Virus record (IMG/VR): IMGVR_UViG_3300023184_005048
Span: 1 to 55,259 of that record
Reading direction: 5' to 3' (one strand)
Source of the DNA: a virus
Taxonomy: Duplodnaviria; Caudoviricetes
DNA length: 55,259 bases
In this document: positions 3,509-55,259 of the stretch, in pieces
Layout: each line of letters opens with the position of its first letter
Numbering within the stretch: position 1 is the stretch's first letter
The notes under the pieces: generated by a model
Database searches by the model: none
Seen by the model: the letters and a program-made list of their open reading frames with translations, nothing else
What the model was told of the DNA's origin: nothing
Made by a program: the position numbers and the translations under genes

Positions 3509-3672
3509 TAATTTTTTTTCTATACAAGTGTGGTTTTTATTATAAATTTCACACTTTTTTTATTCTAATAAAATACTTCAAAACAACTCAACAACTTTTT
3601 CAAATCTTAGAATATAAATACTAATCAGATACACAAAGTATTTGATATAAACAAAAAAAATAAAAAGCAATT

Positions 3673-4641: not shown

Positions 4642-4662
4642 TAGTAACATATTAATATTAGA

Positions 4663-4695
4663 AATAGGAGTTCCATTGGGACTCCTATTTTTTTT
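4663..4695 (+). terminator. Intrinsic terminator
   Basis: AATAGGAGT...ACTCCTATT hairpin plus T-run. Confidence 0.8.
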
Positions 4696-4770
4696 ATACA
4701 TATCCTAACAACTTATTTGAAGTCTTTTATATAATTAAAAGGATAATAATATAAAAAATTAAAATTAAAT

Positions 4771-41886: not shown

Positions 41887-42270
41887 ATGGAAAAAAAGAA
41901 AAGACCTGATAGTTTTGTAGAAAATCGAATGAGTAAGACTTATCCAACGGAAATTGGCGCACCAAAATTTGAGCCAGATAATATTAGTCTATTTAAAATT
42001 GAAAAAACTTCTAAGATAAAAAAATACTATTCGTCAAAATTTGAAGAAATGACGAAAGAGTATGAAAAGCTAATGTCAGAAATTAAAATGAATGAAAGAC
42101 TTTATATGGCTACGCATAACTTTACACCAATCTCTGGTGAAATTTATCACTTATATAAAAAGGAATCCAATGAAGAATTCCTTTCTTTAATATCTCCGGA
42201 ACAATGGAAAAAATTTGAGTTTATCGGCTCTTTCAAATTTTTATCTGATGGAAGATGGGAGGTAGCTTAA
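41887..42270 (+). CDS. DUF2452-like protein
   Basis: F.P..GEIYHLY...FLSLISPEQW...GSF....DGRW. Confidence 0.6.
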   Translation: MEKKKRPDSFVENRMSKTYPTEIGAPKFEPDNISLFKIEKTSKIKKYYSSKFEEMTKEYEKLMSEIKMNERLYMATHNFTPISGEIYHLYKKESNEEFLSLISPEQWKKFEFIGSFKFLSDGRWEVA

Positions 42271-43871
42271 CCTACCCACCCTTCTTTCAAACTTACCGTT
42301 TTATTGAAACTTTTACCATCAGTATCTAAAATATAATACCCTTTTCTCATCATTTGAACTGGCTCCTTGACGTTTAAAACGTGAGGCTCAAAGATTGCCT
42401 TATCATTAATTATAAGTGAACCTGGGTTAATATAATTGATAAAATCATCTTCATTTTTATCTGGTGATTCATCATTAAATAATCTTTCATATTCATTTAC
42501 TCTAACTCTAACTCCGTGTTCAGCAGATACCCAGTGAATAGTTCCTTTAATTTTTCTTTCAAAAGTCATACCCGATCTTGTTAAAGGATCATAAGTACAC
42601 CTAATCTCAATAATTTCTCCTAATTCATTCTTTATAACTTCATTAGCCTTAATAACATAAGCACCTTTTAATCTTACTTCACCACCTAATTTTAATCTGT
42701 GGAATTTGTTATTGGCTTCTTCTCTGAAATCTTCCGCCTCAATAAATAATTCACCACTAAAAGGAATCATTCTCACTCCAGCACTTTCATCACCAGGATT
42801 GTTTTCAACCTCAACCATTTCAGTTCCCATATCCCAATTTGTAATAACTAACTTAACTGGCTCCATGACTCCCATTAATCTATTAGCAACTACATTCAAA
42901 TCAGTTCTTAAACATTCTTCTAAAAGTAAGTAAGAAACAACAGACTCTTTTCTAGTAACAGAAATTCTATCACAAAAATCTTTAATAGCATTTGGTGTAA
43001 AACCTCTTCTTCTTAATCCAGAAATAGTTGGCATTCTTGGATCATCCCAACCCGTAACATAAGATTCTTCTACAAGTCTTTTTAACTTTCTCTTTGACAT
43101 AACTGTATAGTCAATGTTCAAACGAGCAAACTCAGTTTCTTCTGGTAATGAATTTTCTAAATCACAATTTTCTAACACCCACATATATAAAGGTCTATGA
43201 ACTTCAAATTCTAAAGTACAAAGTGAATCAGTGATACCTTCTTTATAATCAGATAAAGGATGAGCAAAGTCATACATTGGATAAATCTTCCAAGTATCAC
43301 CAGTTCTGTGATGTGACTTAGAGATTATTCTATAAATAACTGGATCTCTTAAAATCATATTTGGTGAAGTCATATCAATATTAGCTCTCAATATTTTAGA
43401 ACCTTCAGAGAATTCACCTAATCTCATTCTATTAAATAAGTCTAAGTTTTCTTCTACTGATCTAGACTTGTAAGGTGAGTCTTTACCAACTGAAGTTGGA
43501 GTTCCTTTCATTAAAGCAATTTCTTCAGATGTTGAATCATCAACATAAGCTAAGCCTTTTTTAATTAAAGTAACGGCACAATTATAAAGAAATTCAAAGT
43601 AATCAGATGTATAGAAAATATTAGCTGGTTTGTAGCCAAGCCATTCTATATCTTTTATAATTGACTCTACATAGTGAGTATCTTCAGTAGTTGGATTTGT
43701 ATCATCAAATCTTAGATTACAAGGTCTATTATACTTTTCAGCTAATCCGAAATTTAGTATAATGGATTTAGCGTGACCAATATGGAGATAACCATTTGGC
43801 TCTGGTGGAAATCTTAATGTTAGTTTATCAAGATTGTTTTTGTCTAATATTTTATCTTCAATGAAATTCAT
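42267..43871 (-). CDS. glnS: Glutaminyl-tRNA synthetase
   Basis: RFPPEPNGYLHIGHAK, LRFDDTNP, IYPMYDFAH, CTLEF, MSKRKL, KGTIHWVS. Confidence 0.95.
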   Translation of the reverse strand: MNFIEDKILDKNNLDKLTLRFPPEPNGYLHIGHAKSIILNFGLAEKYNRPCNLRFDDTNPTTEDTHYVESIIKDIEWLGYKPANIFYTSDYFEFLYNCAVTLIKKGLAYVDDSTSEEIALMKGTPTSVGKDSPYKSRSVEENLDLFNRMRLGEFSEGSKILRANIDMTSPNMILRDPVIYRIISKSHHRTGDTWKIYPMYDFAHPLSDYKEGITDSLCTLEFEVHRPLYMWVLENCDLENSLPEETEFARLNIDYTVMSKRKLKRLVEESYVTGWDDPRMPTISGLRRRGFTPNAIKDFCDRISVTRKESVVSYLLLEECLRTDLNVVANRLMGVMEPVKLVITNWDMGTEMVEVENNPGDESAGVRMIPFSGELFIEAEDFREEANNKFHRLKLGGEVRLKGAYVIKANEVIKNELGEIIEIRCTYDPLTRSGMTFERKIKGTIHWVSAEHGVRVRVNEYERLFNDESPDKNEDDFINYINPGSLIINDKAIFEPHVLNVKEPVQMMRKGYYILDTDGKSFNKTVSLKEGWVG

Positions 43872-43889
43872 AATTTTTATATTTTTTAG

Positions 43890-43960
43890 TTGTCTCGCTA
43901 GGATTCGAACCTAGACTAGAAGAGTCAAAATCTTCTGTGCTGCCGTTACACTACGAGACA
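43890..43960 (-). tRNA. tRNA-Gln(UUG)
   Basis: Cloverleaf; GAAGA-TTTTGAC-TCTTC. Confidence 0.9.
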
Positions 43961-43966
43961 TTTTTG

Positions 43967-44038
43967 TTGCTCCACTTGGACTCGAACCAAGCTCATCTGT
44001 TTCAAAGACAGATATGATCACCCATATACTATGGAGCA
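43967..44038 (-). tRNA. tRNA-Gln(UUG)
   Basis: Cloverleaf; TCTGT-CTTTGAA-ACAGA. Confidence 0.88.
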
Positions 44039-44046
44039 AAATGTTG

Positions 44047-44117
44047 TTGTCTTACTAGGACTCGAACCTAGAATAGAAGAGTCAAAATCTTCTGTGTTGC
44101 CATTACACTATAAGACA
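44047..44117 (-). tRNA. tRNA-Gln(UUG)
   Basis: Cloverleaf; GAAGA-TTTTGAC-TCTTC. Confidence 0.9.
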
Positions 44118-44119
44118 AT

Positions 44120-44154
44120 AAAAAAACCCTACTCAATCAGATTGAATAGGGTTT
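44120..44154 (-). terminator. Attenuator terminator before the tRNA-Gln x3/glnS unit
   Basis: AACCCTATTCAAT-ctg-ATTGAGTAGGGTT hairpin plus T-run. Confidence 0.85.
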
Positions 44155-44182
44155 GTAAAGTTTTAACAATACGATACCGTTA

Positions 44183-44236
44183 TCAATCTGTTCGATTAAT
44201 TTGTTGTTGTTGTTGGTATTGTGATGTTGTTGTCAT
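44183..44236 (-). CDS. Gln-rich leader peptide MTTTSQYQQQQQINRTD
   Basis: Hand-translated; six CAA codons; its 3' end CAGATTGA is complementary to the terminator 5' arm and loop. Confidence 0.85.
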   Translation of the reverse strand: MTTTSQYQQQQQINRTD

Positions 44237-44266
44237 AATTCTATTTATTAATATTTTGTTTCTTTG

Positions 44267-44343
44267 TCGAGATGGCAGGATTCGAACCTGCGAGTTCTCC
44301 TGCTCCCAAAGCAGGCGGGGTAACCGGACTCCCCAACATCTCG
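44267..44343 (-). tRNA. tRNA-Pro(UGG)
   Basis: CCTGC-TTTGGGA-GCAGG; C1-G72, A73. Confidence 0.9.
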
Positions 44344-44351
44344 TATTTTAG

Positions 44352-44425
44352 CGGTCCCGACGGGATTCGAACCCGCACCTCGCACCGTGACAGGGTGGTA
44401 TTGTAAACCATTCAACCACGGGACC
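44352..44425 (-). tRNA. tRNA-Asp(GUC)
   Basis: Loop CTGTCAC; G73. Confidence 0.9.
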
Positions 44426-44489
44426 GTTTTTGAGAATTCTTTTACTCTATTCTCTAAAGAGTATCTTTTGCCTCAAAGGCTACTTGTTG

Positions 44490-44561
44490 CGGTCTAGAAG
44501 GGTTTCGATCCCTCTACTTCTGCGTGACAGGCAGATATGATAGCCACTTCACCACTAGACC
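44490..44561 (-). tRNA. tRNA-Asp(GUC)
   Basis: TCTGC-CTGTCAC-GCAGA; T-loop ATCGAAA. Confidence 0.85.
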
Positions 44562-44568
44562 ATTTTTG

Positions 44569-44641
44569 TCGGGAAGGTCGGAATCGAACCGACTAACTGA
44601 AGCCTCCAGAGCCCCCGTGCTTAAACCTTAGTCACTTCCCG
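44569..44641 (-). tRNA. Atypical tRNA-Pro(UGG)
   Basis: CGGGAAG/CTTCCCG acceptor; loop TCTGGAG (C33, A37); weak D-arm. Confidence 0.65.
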
Positions 44642-44656
44642 TTTTTTATATAAAAC

Positions 44657-44689
44657 AAAAAACCCAGTTAATCTTTCGACTAACTGGGT
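44657..44689 (-). terminator. Attenuator terminator before the Pro/Asp/Gln tRNA array
   Basis: ACCCAGTTAGTC-GAAA-GATTAACTGGGT hairpin plus T-run. Confidence 0.85.
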
Positions 44690-44712
44690 AATGTTTCATA
44701 GGTAATATATTC

Positions 44713-44811
44713 TTAACCTAAAACTACATAGTTAGCCTCTTTCGAACCAGGATCCTGATCGATTACAACTTGCGGTTGCGGGTTAACGATATTTAAGTTT
44801 AAGTTTTTCAT
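44713..44811 (-). CDS. Leader peptide MKNLNLNIVNPQPQVVIDQDPGSKEANYVVLG
   Basis: Hand-translated; Pro/Gln/Asp cluster followed by GGCTAACT, complementary to the terminator 5' arm. Confidence 0.75.
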   Translation of the reverse strand: MKNLNLNIVNPQPQVVIDQDPGSKEANYVVLG

Positions 44812-44816
44812 TTCAG

Positions 44817-44889
44817 TATATATTAAAAAGGATTTCTTCCTTTTGTTCTTATTTTATACAAATATACAACAAAGTTTTAATTTGTCAAA
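44817..44889 (-). promoter_or_regulatory. Tandem promoters: AATATATA (44817-44824) and Bacteroidota-type TATATTTG/TTTG (44859-44889)
   Basis: Both recurring motifs lie directly upstream of the leader ORF. Confidence 0.6.
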
Positions 44890-44901
44890 TATTTTTTATT
44901 T

Positions 44902-45270
44902 TTATTTGAAATTTTCTTTTGATTTGAAATCTAATATTTCAATATTAAAAGGTGTTAATTTTCTACCTAGTTCTTCAACTATAGTAAGTATTTCTCTTTC
45001 ATTATAAACAGTAATGTTAAAATGAGCAACAGCATCTATTTCAACAGCACCATCTTCTAATTCAGCAACAGTTCCTTCATCAAGAATATTAACTTCAACA
45101 GACTCTTGATCGTAAAACAACTCGCTAACTTTAGATAAACCTAAGATTATTTTATCTTCAGTGATATCTTCACCTCTTAATAATATGTCAATATTATAAG
45201 ATTCTTTTGGTTCAGAATATCTGAATCCTACGGTTCTTTGATATTCATTTATTGATTGTAAATATTTCAT
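44902..45270 (-). CDS. Hypothetical protein with MKYLQSINE tag
   Basis: ORF; AATATATA 4 nt upstream. Confidence 0.65.
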   Translation of the reverse strand: MKYLQSINEYQRTVGFRYSEPKESYNIDILLRGEDITEDKIILGLSKVSELFYDQESVEVNILDEGTVAELEDGAVEIDAVAHFNITVYNEREILTIVEELGRKLTPFNIEILDFKSKENFK

Positions 45271-45294
45271 AGATTATATATTAATTTTTAAAAC

Positions 45295-45325
45295 AAAAAA
45301 CCCTCAGATAAAAATCTAAGGGCTT
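45295..45325 (-). terminator. Intrinsic terminator after the cold-shock gene
   Basis: GCCCTTAGAT...ATCTGAGGGT hairpin plus T-run. Confidence 0.75.
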
Positions 45326-45349
45326 TAATTCTTTAGTACTAAAAATATA

Positions 45350-45541
45350 TTAAGCGTTAACTGATACGTTAACTGCGTTTAATCCTTTTTTACCTTCTGT
45401 TACTTCAAAGCTAACTGAATCTTTTTCTTTAATTTCATCAATTAATCCTGTAGCGTGTACAAACACATCTGTTCCGTTCTCGTCTGTGATGAAACCAAAT
45501 CCTTTAGCTTCATTGTAGAACTTTACTGTTCCTGTTTTCAT
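45350..45541 (-). CDS. Cold-shock domain protein
   Basis: GTVKFYNEAKGFGFI, DVFVH, GKKGLNAVNV. Confidence 0.95.
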   Translation of the reverse strand: MKTGTVKFYNEAKGFGFITDENGTDVFVHATGLIDEIKEKDSVSFEVTEGKKGLNAVNVSVNA

Positions 45542-45606
45542 TCTTTTATTCTTGTTTATTTTTATTTTTTGGTATTATTACCACTTGTTATATATTGAAT
45601 ATGAAA

Positions 45607-46017
45607 TTAGTTTATACCTAAATCATTTAATATTTTATCTCTTAATTTAGGAACATCATGAATAGCATAAACTGAATTTCTTGTAATTAGAATATTATCA
45701 TCTATTATTTTATTAACAGTTGATGTGTACCAATTTACTACACCATAAGACTCACCTATCTTTGGTTCTTTATTTTGTATTCCTTTTAATGTGTTTGATG
45801 GTTTATCAAATCTAGAAAATCTATCAGGACGATCACTTGGTGTTCCAACAATAGATTGTTGAGTTTTTAGATATTTATATTCATCACCACATTTTTCTTT
45901 TAGAATTGTGACATAGTGGTCAAAAATAGGACCAGCATTATAAACAACCATAATAGTATCTCTACCTTCAGTTGGTATAATAGATCCTATCTTTAATATT
46001 TCAACTTCTTTATTCAA
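45607..46017 (-). CDS. Hypothetical protein
   Basis: ORF; WYTSTV..I...TRNSVY; C-terminal RDKILNDLGI. Confidence 0.65.
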   Translation of the reverse strand: MNKEVEILKIGSIIPTEGRDTIMVVYNAGPIFDHYVTILKEKCGDEYKYLKTQQSIVGTPSDRPDRFSRFDKPSNTLKGIQNKEPKIGESYGVVNWYTSTVNKIIDDNILITRNSVYAIHDVPKLRDKILNDLGIN

Positions 46018-46255
46018 TTATCTTATTTATTTTTTTATTTCTTATAAATGATTTTACCCAATAATCTGGTATCTCAATATATCCAATATCTTCTTTATTC
46101 GGTTCAGAAAATTCTGTTTTATAGAATCCTTCAGTTAAATGTATATTAGTTATATTAGGAATGCCATCAACAGTTTTACATCCCTTTTCTAAAAGAAAAG
46201 AATTTACAGCTTCAACTACATCAGATGATAAAAATCTTCCTTCAATATCTCTCAT
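46010..46255 (-). CDS. Hypothetical protein
   Basis: ORF; C-terminal RNKKINKII. Confidence 0.6.
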   Translation of the reverse strand: MRDIEGRFLSSDVVEAVNSFLLEKGCKTVDGIPNITNIHLTEGFYKTEFSEPNKEDIGYIEIPDYWVKSFIRNKKINKIIE

Positions 46256-46704
46256 ATTAAATATTTATCACCAGAGCCTGGTCTGAATGATTGTAGATTT
46301 CTAATAGCAGAAGAACTGATATGTTGAAATTCTTCATCACAACGAAAGAAAACAACATCAATATCTTTTTTGAAATCATTAATGAATTTTAATTGGTTAT
46401 CTTCATAAGCCAAGTCGTCACCGTTTCTTAGACCACGGACTAAAACAACTTTATAACCTTCTGATTCTTTTTTCTCAATAAGTTCGTGTAAGAAAGTAGT
46501 GTAAACTTCTACACTTCTTCCAATCTTATCTGATATTTCTAATGATCTTGATAAGGCATCACCACCATTTGCTTTCTCTGGATTAACTCCAATAGCAATT
46601 AAAACATTTCCTTCGCCAAATATCCTTTCAGCTTTCTCAACTATGTTAAGATGTCCGATGTGAAAGGGATTAAAAGAACCGGCATAAATGGCTAAAGTTT
46701 TCAT
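46252..46704 (-). CDS. coaD: Phosphopantetheine adenylyltransferase-like nucleotidyltransferase
   Basis: IYAGSFNPFHIGH, NPEK, VRGLRN..D..YE, HISSSAIR. Confidence 0.8.
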   Translation of the reverse strand: MKTLAIYAGSFNPFHIGHLNIVEKAERIFGEGNVLIAIGVNPEKANGGDALSRSLEISDKIGRSVEVYTTFLHELIEKKESEGYKVVLVRGLRNGDDLAYEDNQLKFINDFKKDIDVVFFRCDEEFQHISSSAIRNLQSFRPGSGDKYLI

Positions 46705-46868
46705 ATTATTTTAATTTTAAATATCTTTTACCTAAGATATTAATCATTTCATAATTCTTTTCTTTTTGAGCTTTTTCAAACTCATTAAATATTCTTCTTT
46801 TTAATCTTCTTCTTTTAAGAAATGTAAACATACTCTCTATATTAAAAGAGCCGGTTTCCCGGCTCATA

Positions 46869-48128
46869 TTAGTCAAACTCTAAATCAGAAGCGTATCCAT
46901 CGTATAAGTTTTCACTTCTTTTATCTTTTTGTTCTTGTTGATAAGCAACTGTGTTGTAATAGTTATCTAAACTATCAGAACCTAAGTCGTCACCTTTTGA
47001 GTAATCCAATTCTGGTAAGTACTCTAACAAGTCATTACGATTACACTCTGTTGTGTGGTTACCCGCATCTTGTTTATAATCAACTTTCAATTTGAAACCA
47101 TCCCACTCACAAGAGTCGTATTGTAAATCTAAAGATTTTAATAAGTTATTAATAATCATTGATTCATAATCAACACGTTCTTTACATAAGTCAACTGATA
47201 CAACTTTCTTAGTTAAAGAATCAATCTCTACATTAGAAACGTAGTTGTATTTTTTATCGTGGAACCAAACTTTATCAGTTCTAGGCTCATATTTTTTAGT
47301 GATGTTATTATTCCATCTTGATGCGCCTACACCACCTGAGTAGTAATCATCCCATTCATCCCATCCGTATCCATAACCACTATATGATTTGTATTCAGTT
47401 TTAGAAGGATCTCTATCAACAGGTAAGCCATTCCAATCAACTAATAAACAAGCCTCAGCCAATTTAGTTAAGTGTTCAATGTCTTGTTGTTCTGAAAATG
47501 TGTGTTCTGAACGGTAACCTACAGAGATATTAGTACACTCAGAGTAGATTTTAATAAATTGAACAGAGTCAGTTAAGATACCAGTTGGGTCATTTTTGTA
47601 TGAGAAAGAATCATCAGCCAAGTTTAATTGTTTTGATAAAGCCTCACCAAAAGTATCTGAACAACATCTTTGAGAAGATTGGAAAGTAATAACCGAATCA
47701 TTACCTCTACGGTCAAATGAAATTACTTTGTTGATACCTTCAATCTTTTGGTCTTTTTGAACATTGGCAACCTTTCTTGAACCAACACAACCAACTTCTT
47801 CACCTAAGAAAAAGTAGTAAAGTCCTGGTATTTTGTTTTCAATCATATAAAGCATAATTGTTACACCAGCTTTATCATCTGCTCCTAAAATTGATTTACC
47901 ATCAGTCTTAATAATGTTACCGTCAAAAACGTGATTAACTTGAGTAAGTGCTGAAGTGGCTGTATCTAAGTGAGAAGTAAACATTACATCACTCTCACCA
48001 ATCTTGATAAATAAGTTACCAAACTCGTCTTTTTGTAATTCTGAATTTAACAAAGGGAAAACATCTTCCTCAGTTCCGTGAGGGTATGTTCTACTTGTTA
48101 GTTCTAGAAATTTATCTTTAATGTTCAT
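46869..48128 (-). CDS. M20/M28-family zinc peptidase-like protein
   Basis: SHLDT, LGADDKAG, GEEVG, FDRRG, NISVGY..EH. Confidence 0.8.
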   Translation of the reverse strand: MNIKDKFLELTSRTYPHGTEEDVFPLLNSELQKDEFGNLFIKIGESDVMFTSHLDTATSALTQVNHVFDGNIIKTDGKSILGADDKAGVTIMLYMIENKIPGLYYFFLGEEVGCVGSRKVANVQKDQKIEGINKVISFDRRGNDSVITFQSSQRCCSDTFGEALSKQLNLADDSFSYKNDPTGILTDSVQFIKIYSECTNISVGYRSEHTFSEQQDIEHLTKLAEACLLVDWNGLPVDRDPSKTEYKSYSGYGYGWDEWDDYYSGGVGASRWNNNITKKYEPRTDKVWFHDKKYNYVSNVEIDSLTKKVVSVDLCKERVDYESMIINNLLKSLDLQYDSCEWDGFKLKVDYKQDAGNHTTECNRNDLLEYLPELDYSKGDDLGSDSLDNYYNTVAYQQEQKDKRSENLYDGYASDLEFD

Positions 48129-48244
48129 CTTGTCTATAGTTTTTTTCTACTTATATACAAATATACGGAGGTTATCCACAATATCCAAATTTATTAAGAA
48201 TTAATTTAAATAATATCTGAAATTACTTTTTTAATATATAAGTT

Positions 48245-50530
48245 ATGTCTCAACAAATAGTTTCAAATTTAGAAAATGGTACTCTTCTTATATCGGATAA
48301 GTTTGATATAAACGCATCAGCAAACGCTGTTGATGCTACTCCATATTTTAATACAGTTGGATCTGAATACATAATTAGTTTTGTAAATTTACAAAATATT
48401 AGTCAGTTAACCAATTTTAAATATGATACTTTAGGTTTAACAGATACAAGATTCTTAAAAAATTATTATCGTATTTCTAGAGACGGTAATGCTTGGACTG
48501 ACTGGTTAGACCTTAAAAGAAACATTGATAACTTTCCTACAGTTGATCCAAGAGATCCTTTATACTTAGATATTAAATGGGTTAGAGGTGGTTCTTCTCA
48601 AGTTGGTGCTATTAGAATATTAGAATATTCAATTAATGGTACTTTAGAAAGAACAATGTTTGAAAGTGCGGGCGACGGTATTAGTACTGTTAATTTAGCA
48701 CCAGGTGAAAATACAATTTGGTCAGCACCTTTTATTTATAAAGTATTTGGTATAACTGATGTAGAAGTAATAGCACCGACAAGTCTTACAGGTGTTGATA
48801 TTAAATATAGATTCTCTCAAGATAATTCAAGAACCTGGTCTAATTGGGAACCATTCACAAAAGAAAATATAACTACAACTAGAATTAACCCAATTAGATT
48901 TTTTCAAATTGAATACTCTATTACTAATAATACATCATCTACTGTAGGAATACAAGATATTAATATTATTGGTGACTTTCAAAATGTTAGTAAAGATTAC
49001 TTCAAAACTAATTTATATGGTATTAGAGAATGTTGTCAGTCTAATCTAACCGGATATACTGATGCTAGTGGTAATTTTGTACCAGCTAATAATACAAATG
49101 GTTCAGGAACTGGAGTTGGTGGTGGTATATCAAATTCAGGAGGTGCTTGTGATACAACAGGTGCTGGTTCAACTTTACCTCAAATGAATGATCAAGATAA
49201 AGCAAATTTATTTAACCCATACAAACAAAATACAGCTATGGATTTATTGAATAAATTAAGTGCTGATGCTGAACAAGTATTTGGACATAAAGTTATTTAC
49301 TTTGTTACTGATCCTGATAAAAGAGGTCAAGACCACACCATGCATGAATATCAATTATATAATGTTGTTTGTGAAGGTAATATTAAAGTATCGGTTGATG
49401 GTAATAACTTCCCAGATTCTCAAATTGTAATGAATCAATTTGATTTAAGTCTTTTTGAATCTATGAATGTTCATATAACAAAAAAACAATTTAAGGAAAT
49501 ATTTGGTCCACAAAGAAGACCAAGTAAAGAAGACTTTTTATATTTCTGTGATGTTAATAGAATGTTCCAAGTTGACCACGCTCAACAGTTTAGAAATTTT
49601 AATAACTCAGCAATTTACTACAAACTAGTTCTGAAAAAATACACTCAAAAAGCCAATGTCAAAGCTGGTACTCAAGAGATTCAAAACAAGTTACAACAAC
49701 TTACTAAGAATTCTACTATCAACGAATTATTTGGAATTGAAAATGCTCAAGATAAAGCTTCAATTGCTAACAAAGAACAATTTGCTCCTTTAACAAAGGA
49801 AACTATTAGATTAGAATATAAAGCCACAATTGATAAAGAATTAATTGAAAACTCCTCAACTATTATTAGTAAAGCTCATTATGATCTTTCATCTGTTGAT
49901 TATGGACAAGTCGCTGTTAAATATAAAAACTTTGATCCTTTATTAAGAGTATCTGATAACATTGGATATCAAATTTGGTTTAAAATTAATAACTATATTA
50001 CTAATGAGGTTTATAACTTCATGGATTACTATGATGCTACTAACTCATTAGGTTGGAAAGTTGATTTATCAAATGATGCTATTCAAGTTAAATTAAATTC
50101 AGATACTTATACTTATGATTTAATGGGTTATTCATCAGATCAAAATATGGCATTTGAAGAAGATGTTTGGTATTGCTATGTTCTTAATATAAATCAAAGA
50201 AATAGAAAATTAGAACATTATGTTTATAAGAGAAATGTTGATGATGAATCAGATGCTGCTAATTTGTCTAATACGATACTTAGAAAAGTTTATCAATATA
50301 CACAAGATATTACACCTATCACTTATCAAATTGAAAGTAATGTTACTTGTCAAATTCTTGCTTCTGATATGTCAGTTACCAACATTAGATTATTTATGGA
50401 AGATATTCCAGCTGAGCAACATAATAAAATATGTAATCAATATATTATTAGAGACGATTCTAAATATCTTGTTTTTGCTGATAACGCCACTACAAGATTA
50501 TATCTACCGAAATTTCCACTATATGAATAA
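48245..50530 (+). CDS. Virion protein with a T4 gp14-like neck domain
   Basis: FGHKVIYF...F...F.EIFG...RPSKEDFLYF...RMFQV.H...YKLVLKKY; late motif at 48233-48240. Confidence 0.6.
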   Translation: MSQQIVSNLENGTLLISDKFDINASANAVDATPYFNTVGSEYIISFVNLQNISQLTNFKYDTLGLTDTRFLKNYYRISRDGNAWTDWLDLKRNIDNFPTVDPRDPLYLDIKWVRGGSSQVGAIRILEYSINGTLERTMFESAGDGISTVNLAPGENTIWSAPFIYKVFGITDVEVIAPTSLTGVDIKYRFSQDNSRTWSNWEPFTKENITTTRINPIRFFQIEYSITNNTSSTVGIQDINIIGDFQNVSKDYFKTNLYGIRECCQSNLTGYTDASGNFVPANNTNGSGTGVGGGISNSGGACDTTGAGSTLPQMNDQDKANLFNPYKQNTAMDLLNKLSADAEQVFGHKVIYFVTDPDKRGQDHTMHEYQLYNVVCEGNIKVSVDGNNFPDSQIVMNQFDLSLFESMNVHITKKQFKEIFGPQRRPSKEDFLYFCDVNRMFQVDHAQQFRNFNNSAIYYKLVLKKYTQKANVKAGTQEIQNKLQQLTKNSTINELFGIENAQDKASIANKEQFAPLTKETIRLEYKATIDKELIENSSTIISKAHYDLSSVDYGQVAVKYKNFDPLLRVSDNIGYQIWFKINNYITNEVYNFMDYYDATNSLGWKVDLSNDAIQVKLNSDTYTYDLMGYSSDQNMAFEEDVWYCYVLNINQRNRKLEHYVYKRNVDDESDAANLSNTILRKVYQYTQDITPITYQIESNVTCQILASDMSVTNIRLFMEDIPAEQHNKICNQYIIRDDSKYLVFADNATTRLYLPKFPLYE

Positions 50531-50531
50531 T

Positions 50532-50566
50532 AAAAAAGCCTCTGATTTTTCAGAGGCTTTCTTTTT
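50532..50566. terminator. Bidirectional terminator between convergent genes
   Basis: AAAAAAGCCTCTGA-tttt-TCAGAGGCTTT. Confidence 0.8.
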
Positions 50567-52190
50567 ATAAAGTATTTTGAATTCTTATTAATGACTCATC
50601 CCTACCAAGGATTTCCATTGTTGATACCAAGTCTGGACCCGGCATACCACCTGTGATAGCAACTCTTAAAGCTGGCATTATCTTACCCATCTTAACACCC
50701 ATTTCTTGACAAAGATCGTGAATATTTTGTTTAATAGTCTCAGCATTCCAATCAATTGACTTTGTTATAAAAGCACTAAATACTTTCTTATAATCATCAG
50801 TCAATAACTTAACATCTGTTTCTTTAATCACAATTGGCTTAAAGAAGATATCAGCAACCACTTGTAAATCTTTTGTGAAGACCGCTCTCTTTTTACAGAT
50901 ATCCACAATCTTAGAAAGATTTTCTGGTGAATATTGATATTGGTCACCCATATCAATATTAGAAAGAAGTTCATCATCACTTCTATAAGTGTTCAAATGT
51001 TGAGCATTAAAGTGTTTAGCTTTTTCAACATCAAAACGAGCACCGGCTTTATGAACGTGAGATAAATCAAACTTAGAAATCATATCAGCCATTGTCATTA
51101 CTTCAGTAGTATCAGTTGGAGACCAACCTAATAGTACTAAGAAGTTTAACATAGCTTGTGGTTCATAACCTTCATCTTTGAAACCAAGATATTTAACCAT
51201 ATTACCTTTATCATCTTCTCCTTCACCACCCATCGGGAAAGCAGGAATACCCATAGAAAGAGCTTTACGTTTAGACAACTTGCCTTTACCATCTGGATTT
51301 AAAATCAATGGTAAATGAGCAAAAGTAGGAGCAGTCCAACCAAATGCTTCATATAACATTAAATGAAGCGGAGTTGAAGGTAGCCATTCTTCACCACGAA
51401 TAACGTGAGTTGTTCCCATATCATGGTCGTCACAAACATTAGCCATATGATATGTTGGAATACCATTTGATTTAACTAAAACTTTATCATCAGTTTGATT
51501 TGTATTCAAACTAACTTCACCACGAATAACATCAGTAACAGTAATTGTTCTGTTTTCTGGTGTTTTGAAACGAATTACAAATGGAGTTTTATTAGCAAGT
51601 AAAGCATCAACTTCTTCTTTTGGTAAAGAAAGTGAATTTCTCATTGACATACGAGTTTTAGCATCGTAAGCAAAGTGAGCATTTTCAGCTCTAACTTTAG
51701 CAATATCTTCTTCAGTATCAAAAGCATAATAAGCCATACCCTTATCTAAAAGAGTTTGAATATGTTCAGAGTAATCTCTTTCCGATTGACGGTAAGGACC
51801 ATTAGGACCACCTTTCCAAGGCGCATAGTCTGGTTCAATACCACACCACTCTAAAGAATCTTGGATATACTTTTCAGCATCACCAACAAATCTTTTTTGG
51901 TCAGTATCTTCAATACGAACATAAAATATACCACCGTGTTTTTTAGCAAACAGATAGTTATAAAGGGCAGTACGAACTCCACCGATGTGTAGAAATCCTG
52001 TTGGTGAAGGAGCAAAACGAGTTACTACTTTACCGGAAGGTGTAATAGTATCTAAAGCATCCAAACTTTTTTGAACATCAGGGGATTGTCCATCATCATG
52101 AGTCGCAAGTGTATGAAGAGCATCGTCACTCATTTCACTTTTTGATTCAGCGAGAAATTTATCTCTATTTTTAATGTATTTCATGTCCAT
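50565..52190 (-). CDS. gltX: Glutamyl-tRNA synthetase with a ~50 aa N-terminal extension (likely start 52184)
   Basis: RFAPSPTGFLHIGG, RIEDTD, YRQSER, HVIRGEEW, KLSKR. Confidence 0.95.
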   Translation of the reverse strand: MDMKYIKNRDKFLAESKSEMSDDALHTLATHDDGQSPDVQKSLDALDTITPSGKVVTRFAPSPTGFLHIGGVRTALYNYLFAKKHGGIFYVRIEDTDQKRFVGDAEKYIQDSLEWCGIEPDYAPWKGGPNGPYRQSERDYSEHIQTLLDKGMAYYAFDTEEDIAKVRAENAHFAYDAKTRMSMRNSLSLPKEEVDALLANKTPFVIRFKTPENRTITVTDVIRGEVSLNTNQTDDKVLVKSNGIPTYHMANVCDDHDMGTTHVIRGEEWLPSTPLHLMLYEAFGWTAPTFAHLPLILNPDGKGKLSKRKALSMGIPAFPMGGEGEDDKGNMVKYLGFKDEGYEPQAMLNFLVLLGWSPTDTTEVMTMADMISKFDLSHVHKAGARFDVEKAKHFNAQHLNTYRSDDELLSNIDMGDQYQYSPENLSKIVDICKKRAVFTKDLQVVADIFFKPIVIKETDVKLLTDDYKKVFSAFITKSIDWNAETIKQNIHDLCQEMGVKMGKIMPALRVAITGGMPGPDLVSTMEILGRDESLIRIQNTL

Positions 52191-52217
52191 ATATATTATT
52201 TTTTAATCTAAAAATTA

Positions 52218-52355
52218 TTAATCTTCAATTAAGAATCCAATTATTATATACCAAAGTAAAGCCCATCCACTATGAAAGAACCAGATTACAAAAAATAATC
52301 TAAACCAAAAACGGTCAATACCGGTTTTATTTTGTAGCCGTGTACAAGTACTCAT
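52218..52355 (-). CDS. Small PspC-like membrane protein
   Basis: Hand-translated MSTCTRLQNKTGIDRFWFRLFFVIWFFHSGWALLWYIIIGFLIED; TAAATTTG promoter motif at 52378-52385. Confidence 0.55.
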   Translation of the reverse strand: MSTCTRLQNKTGIDRFWFRLFFVIWFFHSGWALLWYIIIGFLIED

Positions 52356-52419
52356 ATATTTATATTAAATTAGATTACAAATTTAGTAAAAAGAATTCTA
52401 ATAAACAAATATATACATT

Positions 52420-52998
52420 ATGAAATACTTAAAAAGATTTAACGAAGATATTGAAGCCACTATTAAACCAAATGGTAATATTAGTGCTAATATAGATGTT
52501 AAAACTGACGATGATAATACTATCTATGATAAAAGATGGGAAAATGAACTATCTGAGTTTATTACGATAAACTATCATGGTAAATTATATAAATTCAAAA
52601 AAGATAATATAATGTTACATTCTGATATGGTTCAGATAACTTATGCCTCTACACCACTTAATAGTGATGAACAAGGTGAAATTTGGGGCACGCCAGATAC
52701 TTTAGAATTTGATATTTATTTTGTTAAAGATAATGAAACAGATAAAGTAAGATTAACAGTTGATATTACTTATGGTGATTTAATGGCTTGTGAATTTACA
52801 GCTGAAGCTCCTAATAAAATAAAAGTGGTAGAATATACATCCTACCACTCTAAATTTGATCCAAGCAATACTGTATTTGCCTTAGTAGATGAATCTCTAC
52901 AATCCTTCATAAACTTCCTAAATAGATTTGAAGGAATGAAACTTAAAAAAGAAGATTTTAAGTTTTTGGATCAATATGACAATTACTTGCCAAATTAA
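52420..52998 (+). CDS. Hypothetical protein with MKYLKRFNE tag
   Basis: ORF; AATATATA at 52408-52415. Confidence 0.7.
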   Translation: MKYLKRFNEDIEATIKPNGNISANIDVKTDDDNTIYDKRWENELSEFITINYHGKLYKFKKDNIMLHSDMVQITYASTPLNSDEQGEIWGTPDTLEFDIYFVKDNETDKVRLTVDITYGDLMACEFTAEAPNKIKVVEYTSYHSKFDPSNTVFALVDESLQSFINFLNRFEGMKLKKEDFKFLDQYDNYLPN

Positions 52999-53207
52999 GA
53001 TATCCATCTGATTAAATACTTTGAATCCATTAAGTATTCAAAATCAGCATCTCCCATATCTGAAACAGGAACCTCAAATTTAATTTCAACCGGTTCACCT
53101 TCAGATTCGATAATTGCTAAGTAATAAGATACACCTTTTCTGATAAACTTAAACTCGGCTTTTGGATTTTGCTTATACAAAGCTTTTTTAATTTCATTCT
53201 TTTCCAT
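52995..53207 (-). CDS. Hypothetical protein
   Basis: ORF; KKALYKQNP, F.VPVSDMGDADF...K.LIRW. Confidence 0.65.
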   Translation of the reverse strand: MEKNEIKKALYKQNPKAEFKFIRKGVSYYLAIIESEGEPVEIKFEVPVSDMGDADFEYLMDSKYLIRWIS

Positions 53208-53229
53208 TTTTATTGGTTTTTTTATCGAG

Positions 53230-53310
53230 TATCAGAAGAGAGACTTGAACTCTCATACCGTTAGGCGCTGGCTTTTGAAACCAGTGTGTATACCATTCCA
53301 CCATTCTGAC
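53230..53310 (-). tRNA. tRNA-Leu(CAA)
   Basis: CTGGT-TTCAAAA-GCCAG; V-arm; A73. Confidence 0.88.
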
Positions 53311-53315
53311 ATTTG

Positions 53316-53386
53316 TAGCGTGTGTGGGGTTCGAACCCACTTATCAGTCCTTATGAGAGACAGCTCTTTTCCACTAAGCCACGCCA
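53316..53386 (-). tRNA. tRNA(CAU), Met or Ile2, with atypical D-arm
   Basis: Loop CTCATAA; T-arm GTGGG-TTCGAAC-CCCAC. Confidence 0.7.
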
Positions 53387-53395
53387 TATTATTAG

Positions 53396-53478
53396 TGCCC
53401 AAAGAGAGACTCGAACTCTCACGTCCTTTCGGACACCGGCTTCTTAGACCGGCGTGTCTACCATTCCACCATCTGGGC
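53396..53478 (-). tRNA. tRNA-Leu(AAG)
   Basis: CCGGT-CTAAGAA-GCCGG; Leu-type D-loop and V-arm. Confidence 0.88.
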
Positions 53479-53483
53479 ATTTG

Positions 53484-53556
53484 AGCAGATACCCAGAGTC
53501 GAACTGGAATCTCGTCCGTACCAAGGACGTGTAATCACCGATTATACGATAACTGC
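53484..53556 (-). tRNA. tRNA-Thr(GGU)
   Basis: CGTCC-TTGGTAC-GGACG. Confidence 0.85.
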
Positions 53557-53562
53557 TTGTTG

Positions 53563-53649
53563 TAGCGGGGGCAGGATTCGAACCTGACGTGTCACTTGCG
53601 CAACCCTGGGTTATGAGCCCAGTGAGTTTGACCTCTACTCTACCCCGCG
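53563..53649 (-). tRNA. Initiator-type tRNA-fMet(CAU) with a long variable arm
   Basis: C1:U72 mismatch, GGG/CCC anticodon stem, loop CTCATAA, extra V-arm. Confidence 0.8.
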
Positions 53650-53654
53650 ATATG

Positions 53655-53739
53655 TACCTGGAGCGGGACTCGAACCCGCACGGGCATTTCTGCCCACTGG
53701 ATTTTAAGTCCAGCGTGTCTACCATTCCACCACCCAGGC
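53655..53739 (-). tRNA. tRNA-Leu(UAA)
   Basis: CTGGA-CTTAAAA-TCCAG. Confidence 0.92.
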
Positions 53740-53755
53740 AGGTGATTTTATTTTG

Positions 53756-53839
53756 AGCCGATGGAGGGACTCGAACCCCCGTTGGACTATTCGTCTCTGG
53801 TTTACAAAACCAGTGCTGTCGCCACTGAGCCACATCGGC
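53756..53839 (-). tRNA. tRNA-Thr(UGU) with a long variable arm
   Basis: CTGGT-TTTGTAA-ACCAG; V-arm GAC-GAATA-GTC. Confidence 0.82.
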
Positions 53840-53842
53840 ATA

Positions 53843-53959
53843 TAATGGAGGAAAGTCTAAAGAGTGATTTTACTGAAGGACTTGAACCTTCAAAAGTTTG
53901 TTTTTAAGACAAATGTGTATACCATTTCACGAAGTAACACTCTTAATCACCATCCATTA
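53843..53959 (-). ncRNA. tRNA-like RNA (UAA loop) with a greatly extended acceptor helix
   Basis: D-, anticodon- and T-arms enclosed by TTACT/AGTAA, AAGAGTG/CACTCTT and TAATGGA/TCCATTA. Confidence 0.6.
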
Positions 53960-53964
53960 TTTTG

Positions 53965-54036
53965 TTGCCTTGGTGGGTAACGATCCCACTACCTCTTCCA
54001 TGTCAAGGAAGTGCTCTCCCATTGAGCTACAAGGCA
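53965..54036 (-). tRNA. tRNA-Val(GAC)
   Basis: CTTCC-TTGACAT-GGAAG. Confidence 0.88.
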
Positions 54037-54043
54037 ATTTTTG

Positions 54044-54190
54044 ACAGTAGGGTGGGAATCGAACCCACCTTCCCAATCCGAACTAAATGACATTTTCTAG
54101 AATATCAAATAATCAAGTTTGGTTTTTAACCCGGACCAGTTCTTTATGTGGCTTCTCTAGGAGTTACCACCTAATATAGGGTCCTACTGA
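54044..54190 (-). ncRNA. tRNA-like RNA: acceptor stem plus T-arm around a ~110 nt insert
   Basis: CAGTAG/CTACTG termini; GGTGGG-TTCGATT-CCCACC. Confidence 0.6.
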
Positions 54191-54194
54191 TTTG

Positions 54195-54266
54195 AGCTTC
54201 TTACCGGTAACGATCCGATTTCTCTAGTTTACAAGACTAGCGCATCACCATTAATGCTTAAGAAGC
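54195..54266 (-). tRNA. tRNA-Thr(UGU)
   Basis: CTAGT-CTTGTAA-ACTAG. Confidence 0.85.
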
Positions 54267-54271
54267 GTTTG

Positions 54272-54354
54272 AGGTACTGACTGGGTTCGAACCAGTGTGA
54301 CAGATTTTGCAGATCTGTGCCTCTCGTCTTTCGACACCACTCGGCCACAGTACC
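54272..54354 (-). tRNA. tRNA-Cys(GCA) with a hairpin inserted in the D-loop
   Basis: CAGAT-CTGCAAA-ATCTG; U73; GTC-GAAA-GAC insert. Confidence 0.85.
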
Positions 54355-54359
54355 ATTTG

Positions 54360-54433
54360 TTGGAATAGTAGGACTCGAACCTACAACCTTTCGCGTATCA
54401 GGCGAATGCTCTAACCAGTTGAGCTATATTCCA
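54360..54433 (-). tRNA. tRNA-Ile(GAU)
   Basis: TTCGC-CTGATAC-GCGAA. Confidence 0.92.
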
Positions 54434-54439
54434 ATTTTG

Positions 54440-54512
54440 TAGTCCCGGTCGGTTACGATCCGACTCCCTCCACTATGTAACAGTGGCGCTCCCCCGATTG
54501 AGCTACAGGACT
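54440..54512 (-). tRNA. tRNA-Val(UAC)
   Basis: CCACT-GTTACAT-AGTGG. Confidence 0.85.
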
Positions 54513-54517
54513 ATTTG

Positions 54518-54603
54518 CTGATGAGGTGGGACTCGAACCCACGGTGGACTTTAATGTCGTCTGGTTAACAGCCAGGCCCTTTCGCCGCTCAGGACACCCA
54601 TCA
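54518..54603 (-). tRNA. tRNA-Asn(GUU) with a long variable arm
   Basis: Loop CTGTTAA; V-arm GAC-ATTAAA-GTC; G73. Confidence 0.8.
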
Positions 54604-54609
54604 ATTTTG

Positions 54610-54692
54610 TACCGAAGGTGGGACTCGAACCCACACACCCTTTCGGGTACTAGCTCCTAAGGCTAGCGTGTCTACCATTCCACCACTTCGGC
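54610..54692 (-). tRNA. tRNA-Leu(UAG)
   Basis: CTAGC-CTTAGGA-GCTAG. Confidence 0.92.
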
Positions 54693-54695
54693 ATC

Positions 54696-54801
54696 TGAGT
54701 GTGATAGGGTATTCTCCTACAGTTGTGGTGGTTGACTAGTCCCATTGTCCACTCCAGTACTTCGTCTGGTGCTGTTTTAGTTTATCAGCGTTTACACACT
54801 C
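54696..54801 (-). ncRNA. Cloverleaf-like RNA with non-consensus loops
   Basis: 7-bp GAGTGTG/CACACTC, GCTG/CAGC, CCAG/CTGG, GTGG/CCAC and GTAGG-7nt-CCTAT stems, in tRNA order. Confidence 0.55.
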
Positions 54802-54805
54802 TTTG

Positions 54806-54878
54806 TAGTCTCCACGGGATTCGAACCCGTATTCTCAGTTTAGAAGACTGATGTCCTATCCAGTTGGACGAGGAAACT
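54806..54878 (-). tRNA. tRNA-Arg(UCU)
   Basis: TCAGT-CTTCTAA-ACTGA. Confidence 0.9.
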
Positions 54879-54883
54879 ATTTG

Positions 54884-54955
54884 CTCACTGGGGGAATTAC
54901 GATATCCCGACCTGACGCTTAACAGGCGCCTGCTCTACCTCTGAGCTACCAGTGA
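54884..54955 (-). tRNA. tRNA-Asn(GUU)
   Basis: GGCGC-CTGTTAA-GCGTC; G73. Confidence 0.85.
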
Positions 54956-54961
54956 ATGTTG

Positions 54962-55046
54962 TCGGTAGGGTGGGATTTGAACCCACGTTGTGATTTCTCA
55001 CCTAGTGTATCAGACTAGTCCCTGAAGACCGCTCGGGTACCTACCG
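54962..55046 (-). tRNA. tRNA-Ile(GAU) with a long variable arm
   Basis: CTAGT-CTGATAC-ACTAG; V-arm GTGA-GAAA-TCAC. Confidence 0.8.
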
Positions 55047-55061
55047 TTGTTTTAAGAGCAT

Positions 55062-55094
55062 AAAAAAACCCTCAGATTTTGTGTCTGAGGGTTT
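55062..55094 (-). terminator. Attenuator terminator before the large tRNA array
   Basis: AAACCCTCAGA-cacaaaa-TCTGAGGGTTT hairpin plus T-run. Confidence 0.85.
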
Positions 55095-55122
55095 CGAGTA
55101 TTCTTTATTAAAATTTGTTATA

Positions 55123-55233
55123 TTAACTAACAAATCGTTTAGATATGACGAAGCCCTCAGAGCGTCTAATACATAACGTATTATTCACCACTGTCAGTGT
55201 ATTCATGTTCATATTTAAATTCATTGTTTTCAT
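55123..55233 (-). CDS. Leader peptide MKTMNLNMNMNTLTVVNNTLCIRRSEGFVISKRFVS
   Basis: Hand-translated; contains TCTGAGGG, an exact copy of the terminator 3' arm; AATATATA 5 nt upstream (55239-55246). Confidence 0.8.
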   Translation of the reverse strand: MKTMNLNMNMNTLTVVNNTLCIRRSEGFVISKRFVS

Positions 55234-55259
55234 TGTTGTATATATTAAAAAGTTTTTGT

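Follow-up and report, generated by a model that had tools for sequence, protein, structure and literature searches.

The DNA analysed here (the window) is the complete virus record IMGVR_UViG_3300023184_005048, which has a length of 55,259 bases and a G+C content of 29.5%. Its minus strand carries three units, designated A, B, and C, each consisting of a short open reading frame (ORF) that starts with ATG, an intrinsic terminator, and transfer RNA (tRNA) genes. These units had been described in an earlier note on this DNA, and all three are present where it placed them. The leader ORFs have a length of 17–36 codons, each with a start and a stop codon (3/3 units); the distance from the leader stop codon to the terminator is 23–28 nucleotides (nt), and that from the terminator to the tRNA genes is 7–19 nt. 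All features of the units listed below are located on the minus strand.

Unit A begins with a promoter of the Bacteroidota type, with TTTG (−33) at 44889 and TATATTTG (−7) at 44866–44859. Leader ORF A (44811–44713) contains 32 codons (MKNLNLNIVNPQPQVVIDQDPGSKEANYVVLG), of which codons 11–21, encoding PQPQVVIDQDP (44781–44749), form the putative sensing stretch. The candidate antiterminator element GGCTAACT (44737–44730) is complementary, with one G-U pair, to the 5′ arm of the terminator at 44685–44678. The terminator, which is separated from the leader by a 23-nt spacer, has a stem of 12 pairs (44689–44662) with a GAAA loop and a T-run to 44656. Array A (44641–44266) comprises a Pro-like tRNA, two Asp-GUC tRNAs, and a Pro-UGG tRNA. 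The first of these genes (44641–44569) is tRNA-like, scoring 28.6 bits in Rfam at a cut-off of 29, and its homologue in the related locus L001 is called Pro-UGG by ARAGORN. This gene represents an odd tRNA family, to which genes of L001 (13927–14001 and 14497–14571) and of another relative, L002 (13547–13620 and approximately 14003–14078), also belong. On reading the sequences, a poor D-arm can be noted in this family, as well as an anticodon arm left unaligned by Rfam and TGG or AGG at the anticodon, preceded by C and not by U.

Leader ORF B (44236–44183; 17 codons, MTTTSQYQQQQQINRTD) starts 29 nt past the tRNA-Pro of array A and lacks its own promoter motif. It contains six Gln codons, all of them CAA (44221–44201), and is followed by a 28-nt spacer. 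The candidate antiterminator element CAGATTGA (44190–44183) takes in the TGA stop codon and is complementary to 44145–44138. Terminator B (44154–44124, with a T-run to 44118) has a 14-bp stem and a 3-nt loop and lies 1 nt from the tRNA-Gln. Three tRNA-Gln(UUG) genes (44117–43889) are located behind it, and 18 nt past the last of them there is a gene encoding glutaminyl-tRNA synthetase (GlnRS; 43871–42267, 534 amino acids (aa), PF00749 at 2.4e-98, PF03950, and PF20974).

Unit C lies near the end of the record, and its promoter falls outside, past the contig end. Leader ORF C (55233–55123) contains 36 codons; the putative sensing stretch comprises codons 3–24 (TMNLNMNMNTLTVVNNTLCIRR, 55227–55162), and directly behind it, the candidate antiterminator element TCTGAGGG (55161–55154) is complementary to 55091–55084. 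A 27-nt spacer separates the leader from the terminator, which has a 12-bp stem (55095–55065), a 7-nt loop, and a T-run to 55058. Array C (55046–53229) contains 18 genes for Ile, Asn, Arg(UCU), Leu, Val, Cys, Thr, and Met tRNAs; 16 of them were identified by ARAGORN, one Cys(GCA) by Rfam only, and one is a sub-threshold candidate with CAU (53316–53385, 28.6 bits). The tRNA-Cys(GCA) gene (54272–54354), which ARAGORN missed and which scores 55.1 bits in Rfam, has a 13-nt insertion in its D-loop; a similar gene can be seen by eye before an Arg array in the relative L018.

The earlier note had claimed that the codons before the element match the tRNA families behind the terminator. This holds for units B and C. 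In leader C, 22 of the 23 residues after Met1 are within the eight amino acids of array C (I, N, R, L, V, C, T, and M), which make up 41.5% of the proteins of the window (binomial 5e-8). In leader B, six of 16 residues are Gln (binomial 4e-6 against the amino-acid usage of the window). As for leader A, eight of 11 residues are P, D, or Q in a stretch chosen post hoc (1e-5), and over the whole leader the match is only 8/31 (0.05).

The window and nine related megaphage records, with a total of 71 tRNA array segments, were analysed by one script under identical rules; the sample consisted of GlnRS loci from IMG/VR and the tRNA-rich regions of five related genomes (476–642 kb, 50–68 tRNAs each). 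A terminator was found no more than 130 nt upstream in 39 of the 71 segments. In 38 of these 39, it is preceded by an ATG ORF of 16–46 aa with the stop codon 17–36 nt before the stem; mononucleotide shuffles give 3.6 such cases on average and 8 at most. The full leader–terminator unit is present in 38 of 51 multi-tRNA segments and in none of 20 single tRNAs. Nine of the 13 leftover multi-tRNA segments were inspected by eye: two hold units missed by the strict rules, six follow longer ORFs, and in one, the terminator lies as far as 230 nt upstream and a 67-aa ORF has been inserted. According to their coordinates, three of the other four are continuations of a unit-bearing array. The arrays of relatives are broken by inserted ORFs (L027 at about 2225–2550, L008 at about 2700–3010, and also L021 and L026), and in the genome W02 a 67-aa ORF lies between the terminator and the array; by eye, inserted ORFs with a CxxC..H motif resemble HNH homing endonucleases.

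The leaders are kept as ORFs in relatives at 70–93% GlnRS identity, which answers the question of their conservation raised with the original prediction of the earlier note. Leader A is kept in L001, L002, L003, L005, L006, L007, and L009, and homologues of leader C are found in L012, L022, and L015. About ten leader types recur, each ahead of its matching tRNAs. QQQQQ precedes Gln tRNAs and GlnRS, PQPQ..DQDP precedes Pro/Asp, HKHFSKSNKWF precedes His/Phe/Trp/Lys, SRSRSS precedes Arg(ACG)/Ser, and YYYEGE precedes Glu/Tyr. IGNGAGAI is found before Ile(UAU)/Gly/Ala, KKKKK before five Lys tRNAs, MNLNMNMN..TLCIR before an Asn/Ile/Leu/Val/Thr/Met/Arg/Cys array, and WPVMPTTVGAICIIMAGDY before a 17-tRNA array of exactly those amino acids. 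The HKHFSKS.KWF leader occurs in 12 of 18 IMG/VR matches to an 18-base leader motif, nine of these 12 contigs being additional to the earlier sample; within the recovered DNA, His/Phe/Lys/Trp tRNAs then follow in ten of the 12.

No leader–terminator unit was found before the tRNA arrays of three other Bacteroidota phages, namely Flavobacterium phage immuto 2-6A, crAss-like cr111_1, and LoVEphage; the device is thus not general to phage tRNA arrays, as far as the three phages examined indicate. Three 'Bacteriophage sp.' contigs with GlnRS were uninformative, having 46–62% GC, no tRNAs, and no leader.

The covariation of leaders with arrays, proposed in the earlier note as a check in related phages, was analysed by reassigning the arrays among the leaders within each genome and scoring the cognate leader codons by standard wobble rules. 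The true pairing was the unique best of 5040 permutations in W01, of 720 each in W02, G001, and G002, of 24 in G003, and of six in the window; W01, W02, G001, and G002 carry six or seven units each. The genomes are related and these tests are not independent, but a single genome (W01) already yields 1 in 5040. Covariation is also apparent where arrays are fused or split between genomes. In G002, one fused Glu/Tyr/Gly/Ile/Ala array stands behind one leader with all five amino acids, whereas both the array and the leader are split in two in W01, W02, and G001. In G003, the Lys tRNAs form an array of their own behind a KKKKK leader; the Phe/His/Asn/Ser leader of this genome lacks the Trp codon and has Asn and Ser in addition. 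In L186, RR is added to the leader where Arg-ACG joins the array. In the single case of L007, a promoter motif precedes the Gln leader, and the A-type leader contains one Gln codon as opposed to three or four elsewhere.

The match extends to individual codons. ATA is found with Ile-UAU and ATT with Ile-GAU; likewise, AGA is found with Arg-UCU and CGY with Arg-ACG. In four-codon boxes, the sensing codons are strongly biased to G-ending codons that are rare in phage genes: the fractions are 0.57 vs. 0.08 for CCG, 0.78 vs. 0.08 for GTG, 0.30 vs. 0.04 for TCG, and 0.45 vs. 0.05 for GGG, and GCG, ACG, and CGC are biased as well. G-ending codons would be read by the U34 tRNAs of the phage via wobble. 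The preference for rare codons points to selection on decoding rather than on the peptide.

These data bear on the possibility that the units are attenuators reporting general translation stress, such as host shut-off or antibiotics, and that the codon match is a by-product of shared codon usage. The leaders for many amino acids would sense up to 8–14 of them, which is near a general sensor, and the long tRNA arrays of Anabaena are described as silent and induced by translation-targeting antibiotics (PMC8421152, PMC10272220). Nevertheless, the pairing within one genome is specific (unique best of 720–5040 permutations), and leaders for a single amino acid (QQQQQ, KKKKK), codon-level matches, and the bias to rare G-ending codons indicate specificity. 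We consider this explanation unlikely.

The match also depends on the reading frame: cognate codons make up 320 of 1026 (31%) in the ORF frame vs. 118/988 and 107/988 (11–12%) in the other frames. This is difficult to reconcile with untranslated RNA leaders that bind tRNA anticodons directly, in the manner of a T-box with many specifiers, and control the terminator free of ribosomes. T-box logic is known for aminoacyl-tRNA synthetase genes of Firmicutes, and runs of codons could in principle pair with anticodons. Against this, 38 of 39 terminator-preceded arrays have an ATG-to-stop ORF at a fixed distance, where shuffles give 3.6; the match is tied to the frame that the ATG defines, and neither a T-box nor any further leader family was matched at the three units in an Rfam E-value scan. 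Direct anticodon binding therefore appears very improbable. The scan covered 42000–55259 and returned no His, Trp, Leu, Thr, or Phe leader at the three units. Two Phe_leader matches of 31.8 and 29.1 bits were rejected, being below the cut-off of 55 and located at an unrelated terminator (50456–50586).

The Bacteroidota promoter motif was found within 160 nt upstream of 29 of the 38 leaders, with 0.14 expected. Between the ATG and the tRNAs, TAnnTTTG was detected in none of the 38 units; in the window, it is absent from the minus strand between 44859 and 42295 and between 55259 and 53082. The distance from the stem to the first tRNA is 5–22 nt in 27 of the 38 units, and larger gaps mostly contain tRNAs missed by ARAGORN (e.g., unit A). 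Hence, promoters behind the terminators, which the earlier note had named as a result that would speak against attenuation, find neither a −7 motif nor room between terminator and tRNAs. The same data argue against the ORFs and terminators being separate small genes, or insulators against transcription from upstream, with the tRNAs transcribed either from dedicated promoters or by constitutive leakage past the terminator. Similar terminators do follow ordinary phage genes, e.g., at 46865–46848 and 50563–50532. With the promoter placed upstream of both ORF and terminator, no −7 motif behind the terminator in 38 units, and the short gap between stem and tRNA, this explanation is extremely unlikely, and it leaves both the codon–array match and the element–arm match unexplained.

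Some units have no promoter motif, among them those with the Gln leaders of L001, L003, L006, and the window, each of which stands directly after a tRNA-Pro. Since unit B adjoins the tRNA-Pro and has no promoter motif, RNA polymerase most likely gets to it solely by reading through terminator A, and the two units appear to be arranged in series; this arrangement would account for the presence of Gln codons in leader A. Between the −7 element and the ATG, the motif CTTTTTAATATATA can be noted 8–12 nt upstream of the ATG of non-homologous leaders (44830–44821 in the window, and also in L011, L012, L020, and L022), and leaders standing after a tRNA share AAAATATTAATAAATAGAAATT instead. These motifs may represent translation initiation regions or an additional promoter type.

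The pairing of the elements with the terminators was assessed by comparing the best duplex between the leader and the 5′ arm with 300 dinucleotide shuffles. In unit B, the duplex has an energy of −13.1 vs. −4.0 kcal/mol, and none of the 300 shuffles was as good; in unit C, the values are −17.6 vs. −7.5 kcal/mol (p 0.003). The 8-nt elements claimed in the earlier note thus exist in all three leaders and are complementary to the 5′ arms; in B and C the pairing is above chance, while in A it is not significant by itself. Element A is retained in relatives, with G-U changes. Throughout the sample, 28 of 38 duplexes are better than shuffles (p ≤ 0.05), and the mean z is −2.9.

The divergent terminators of the nine Gln units are out of register, and a comparison of each leader's own arm with the arms of unlike terminators was used in place of column-wise covariation. 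Pairing with the own arm is stronger by 4.6 kcal/mol on average; the own arm ranks among the best 10% for 27 of the 38 leaders and comes strictly first for 12. Relatives with differing terminators keep matching elements (L008, L002, and L005). The Gln leader of L008 has GGTTCCGG, which pairs with the arm CCTGGAAC, and in L002 CAGATTGA pairs with TTAGTCTG via two G-U pairs. Upon folding, the full leader transcript forms the terminator in 38 of 38 cases, completely in 37. If a ribosome mask is set on a sensing codon and the 3′ arm has yet to be made, almost all folds show the 5′ arm paired with part of the ORF. The narrow range of distances from stop codon to stem (17–36 nt) suggests that a terminating ribosome stands between the element and the arm.

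Taken together, units A, B, and C are probably ribosome-mediated (leader-peptide) transcription attenuators that sense the supply of specific charged tRNAs and gate the tRNA arrays and, in unit B, GlnRS as well. The predicted mechanism is as follows. Transcription would start from a Bacteroidota-type promoter, and the short ORF, the middle of which is written in codons decoded by the downstream tRNAs, would be translated while being made. If charged tRNAs were ample, the ribosome would reach the stop codon 17–36 nt before the stem, the terminator would form, and the transcript would end. If one of the sensed tRNAs were scarce, the ribosome would stall on the sensing codons and free an element of 7–14 nt further down the ORF. 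This element would pair with the 5′ arm, the terminator could not form, and RNA polymerase would enter the tRNA genes. Because the products are the very tRNAs that are sensed, the circuit would be a negative-feedback homeostat. The trigger might be amino-acid starvation, host shut-off, or anticodon nucleases such as PrrC, RloC, or PARIS. The sequence supports the attenuator proposal in anatomy, conservation, covariation, frame specificity, complementarity, and the absence of an internal promoter motif.

Several observations weigh against this proposal. Leader A contains Asn, Leu, Ile, and Val codons with no matching tRNA downstream, and its duplex (−10.2 vs. −8.6 kcal/mol, p 0.21) is not significant alone; ten of the 38 units miss p ≤ 0.05 in the duplex test. 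When a ribosome is placed at the stop codon, the antiterminator disappears from the fold in only 13 of 38 units; for the window, this mask leaves no paired arm bases in B, seven of 12 in A, and 11 of 12 in C. Since the antiterminator is kept under the stop-codon mask, termination under unstalled translation in the longer leaders would rest on kinetics. A trp-like 1:2 hairpin is present in 34 of 38 minimum-energy folds, including that of leader C, and exceeds shuffles in only three of 38. ARAGORN overlooks some tRNAs, and the arrays are incomplete for that reason. The units are not independent samples, the genomes being related, and there are only about ten leader types. Leader translation, stalling, the direction of regulation, and the trigger are what we infer from the DNA.

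Two uncultured phage genomes, LR745206.1 (634,780 bases) and LR756502.1 (642,428 bases), are the nearest named relatives of the window, with 75–78% nucleotide identity over the GlnRS region. According to Al-Shayeb et al. 2020 (PMC7162821), the largest huge-phage genomes are assigned to the 'Mahaphage' clade, for which Bacteroidetes hosts are predicted. DNA nearly identical to 42267–52000 of the window was found in runs labelled as lake, river, or freshwater metagenomes (20 rows, 13 studies). Among the best 80 loci, the GlnRS proteins most similar to that of the phage (54–57% identity) are from Flavobacteriales. TTTG and TAnnTTTG are given as the Bacteroidota promoter consensus in PMC7366714. 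The freshwater metagenomes, the kinship of GlnRS, and the Bacteroidota promoter motifs before the leaders make a freshwater bacterium of the Flavobacteriales type the likely host, in agreement with the Bacteroidota host assumed earlier.

Parts of the 42267–52000 region are also present in six metatranscriptome runs. Metatranscriptome contigs from four runs were considered as evidence of expression and set aside, as they give no ends, strands, or levels. One RNA contig of the run X16, which spans 54959–55211 and thus extends from within leader C past the terminator to the tRNA genes, was not used as evidence either, DNA carry-over being possible.

A second synthetase gene of the window encodes GluRS (50565–52190, minus strand; PF00749 and PF19269). 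Upstream of it there are a promoter motif and a hydrophobic 45-aa ORF (52218–52355, minus strand); neither a terminator nor a Glu-rich leader was found in this region. The window shows no sign of stop-codon recoding such as the TAG recoding reported for Lak phages, and the standard code gives approximately 17,500 codons in long frames over the 55 kb. The long frames of the window (n = 48) end with TAA in 31 cases, TGA in 15, and TAG in two.

Counterparts of the units were looked for in bacteria. In the bacterial glnS loci closest to the phage GlnRS, neither a Gln-rich short ORF nor a terminator was found upstream in any of 77. Among 20 tRNA arrays checked in two Flavobacteriales genomes, 19 are ordinary and one has a unit. 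The latter is located in the chromosome of Chryseobacterium sp. KCF3-3, where an array of 16 tRNAs stands behind a 41-codon ORF (MKQLHNIFNRYSRLFGQEPTGFACILESGIVDKRCLYTWVS). The stop codon of this ORF lies 23 nt before the terminator, which ends 7 nt before the tRNA-His. All 14 amino acids of the array are present in the leader, and 26 of its 40 codons are cognate. Of 151 genomes sampled from the Chryseobacterium family, at least 11 carry this unit, with 77–96% identity (loci L115 (G004:C1:2766300-2769200), L135, L136, and L157–L169). In 13 bacterial units, the arrays comprise 2–16 tRNAs, the shortest being on a locus that reaches the contig end, and the leaders vary with the arrays. In cross-species permutations, uncorrected for relatedness, the true score was matched by 17 of 100,000 at the codon level and by none at the amino-acid level. 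The bacterial element AAGGTGCTT pairs with the arm AAGCGCCT; p ≤ 0.05 was reached in seven of the 13 units, the script having taken the wrong hairpin in four.

Downstream of the bacterial array there are a PF04308 RNase H-like gene (nine of ten loci), RNase T, and a Ro60/TROVE-vWA gene. KCF3-3 also has DinB_2, an Rnl2-type RNA ligase, and a gene of the metallo-beta-lactamase fold, and a MoxR–vWA–beta-propeller system lies just upstream. As to the trigger, starvation or anticodon nucleases, the RNA-repair genes behind the bacterial array give only an indirect hint. Some phage and bacterial leaders start alike (MKNLHNIS.. vs. MKQLHNIS..), which may reflect common descent of the phage and bacterial units. 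Tentatively, and with more doubt than confidence, the leaders can be regarded as a general Bacteroidota bar-code sensor of tRNA supply, by which back-up arrays would be turned on when tRNAs are depleted or cleaved; the megaphages would replace the lost tRNAs, and the Chryseobacterium family would add RNA-repair genes. If so, both parties to the phage–host conflict would register damage to tRNAs through ribosomes that stall on a leader whose individual codons evolve in step with its array.

A full-text literature search, with subscription journals and supplements outside its scope, found no description of leader-peptide attenuation of tRNA genes, in accordance with the earlier note, which knew of none for phage tRNA arrays. 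The main texts of the Lak, huge-phage (PMC7162821), and Anabaena L-array (PMC8421152) papers contain neither 'attenuat-' nor 'leader', and that of the TrcR paper (PMC10272220) contains neither 'attenuat-' nor 'leader peptide'; 'terminator' is likewise absent from the main texts of the two Anabaena papers. For the switching-on of extra tRNAs in phages and in bacteria with long arrays, the searched literature gives either no regulator or, in Anabaena, a repressor. A leader mirroring its array would be a direct cis-acting read-out of the demand for each tRNA and a self-limiting supply circuit. It would extend textbook attenuation from amino-acid and synthetase genes to tRNA genes. The leaders predict from sequence which tRNAs share a transcription unit and could provide compact codon-specific sensors for Bacteroidota, and the tRNA-depletion hypothesis for phage tRNAs becomes testable by simple reporters.

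In the classical leaders trpL, hisL, leuL, ilvL, and thrL, stalling on regulatory codons selects between antiterminator and terminator, and ilvL and thrL sense several amino acids. The units described here would share with them the choice by stalling and the sensing of several amino acids per leader, as predicted from sequence. In contrast to these systems, tRNAs are regulated and not biosynthetic enzymes, the 1:2 hairpin is not above chance, and no Rfam leader matches. The leaders also cover up to eight amino acids in the window and 14 in Chryseobacterium, mostly with one to five codons each, unlike the classical ones. In the pheM–pheST operon of E. coli, a leader ORF rich in cognate codons is followed by a terminator and then by the synthetase gene; unit B resembles it in having a Gln-codon leader, a terminator, and GlnRS. 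It differs in that the tRNA genes between terminator and synthetase are the main cargo, that the amino acid is Gln, and that the carrier is a phage; no relation in sequence or Rfam family was found. A T-box, which has a conserved fold, recognises the tRNA itself and needs no translation; scarcity of the charged tRNA relieves a terminator before translation-related genes. The predicted sensing of a specific charged-tRNA shortage is common to both, whereas the frame-specific ORFs point to ribosomes, and no T-box was found here.

The bacterial counterpart can be compared with an RNA-repair operon that, reportedly, is switched on by the activator RtcR (2020 study). The presence of Ro60 (TROVE) and RNA ligase means that both would answer tRNA damage; the sensor predicted here is a translated leader with a terminator. 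L-arrays, finally, contain many different tRNA genes, are found also in Bacteroidetes and phages, are linked with homing endonucleases, and are described as silent and induced under translational stress (PMC8421152, PMC10272220). Array C with its 18 genes, like the 50–68 tRNAs of the relatives, resembles them as a long array of many different tRNAs. The regulator of the Anabaena L-array is the repressor TrcR (PMC10272220), whereas a leader and a terminator are predicted to play this part here. What we propose is thus a known attenuation mechanism with a new class of regulated genes, the tRNAs.

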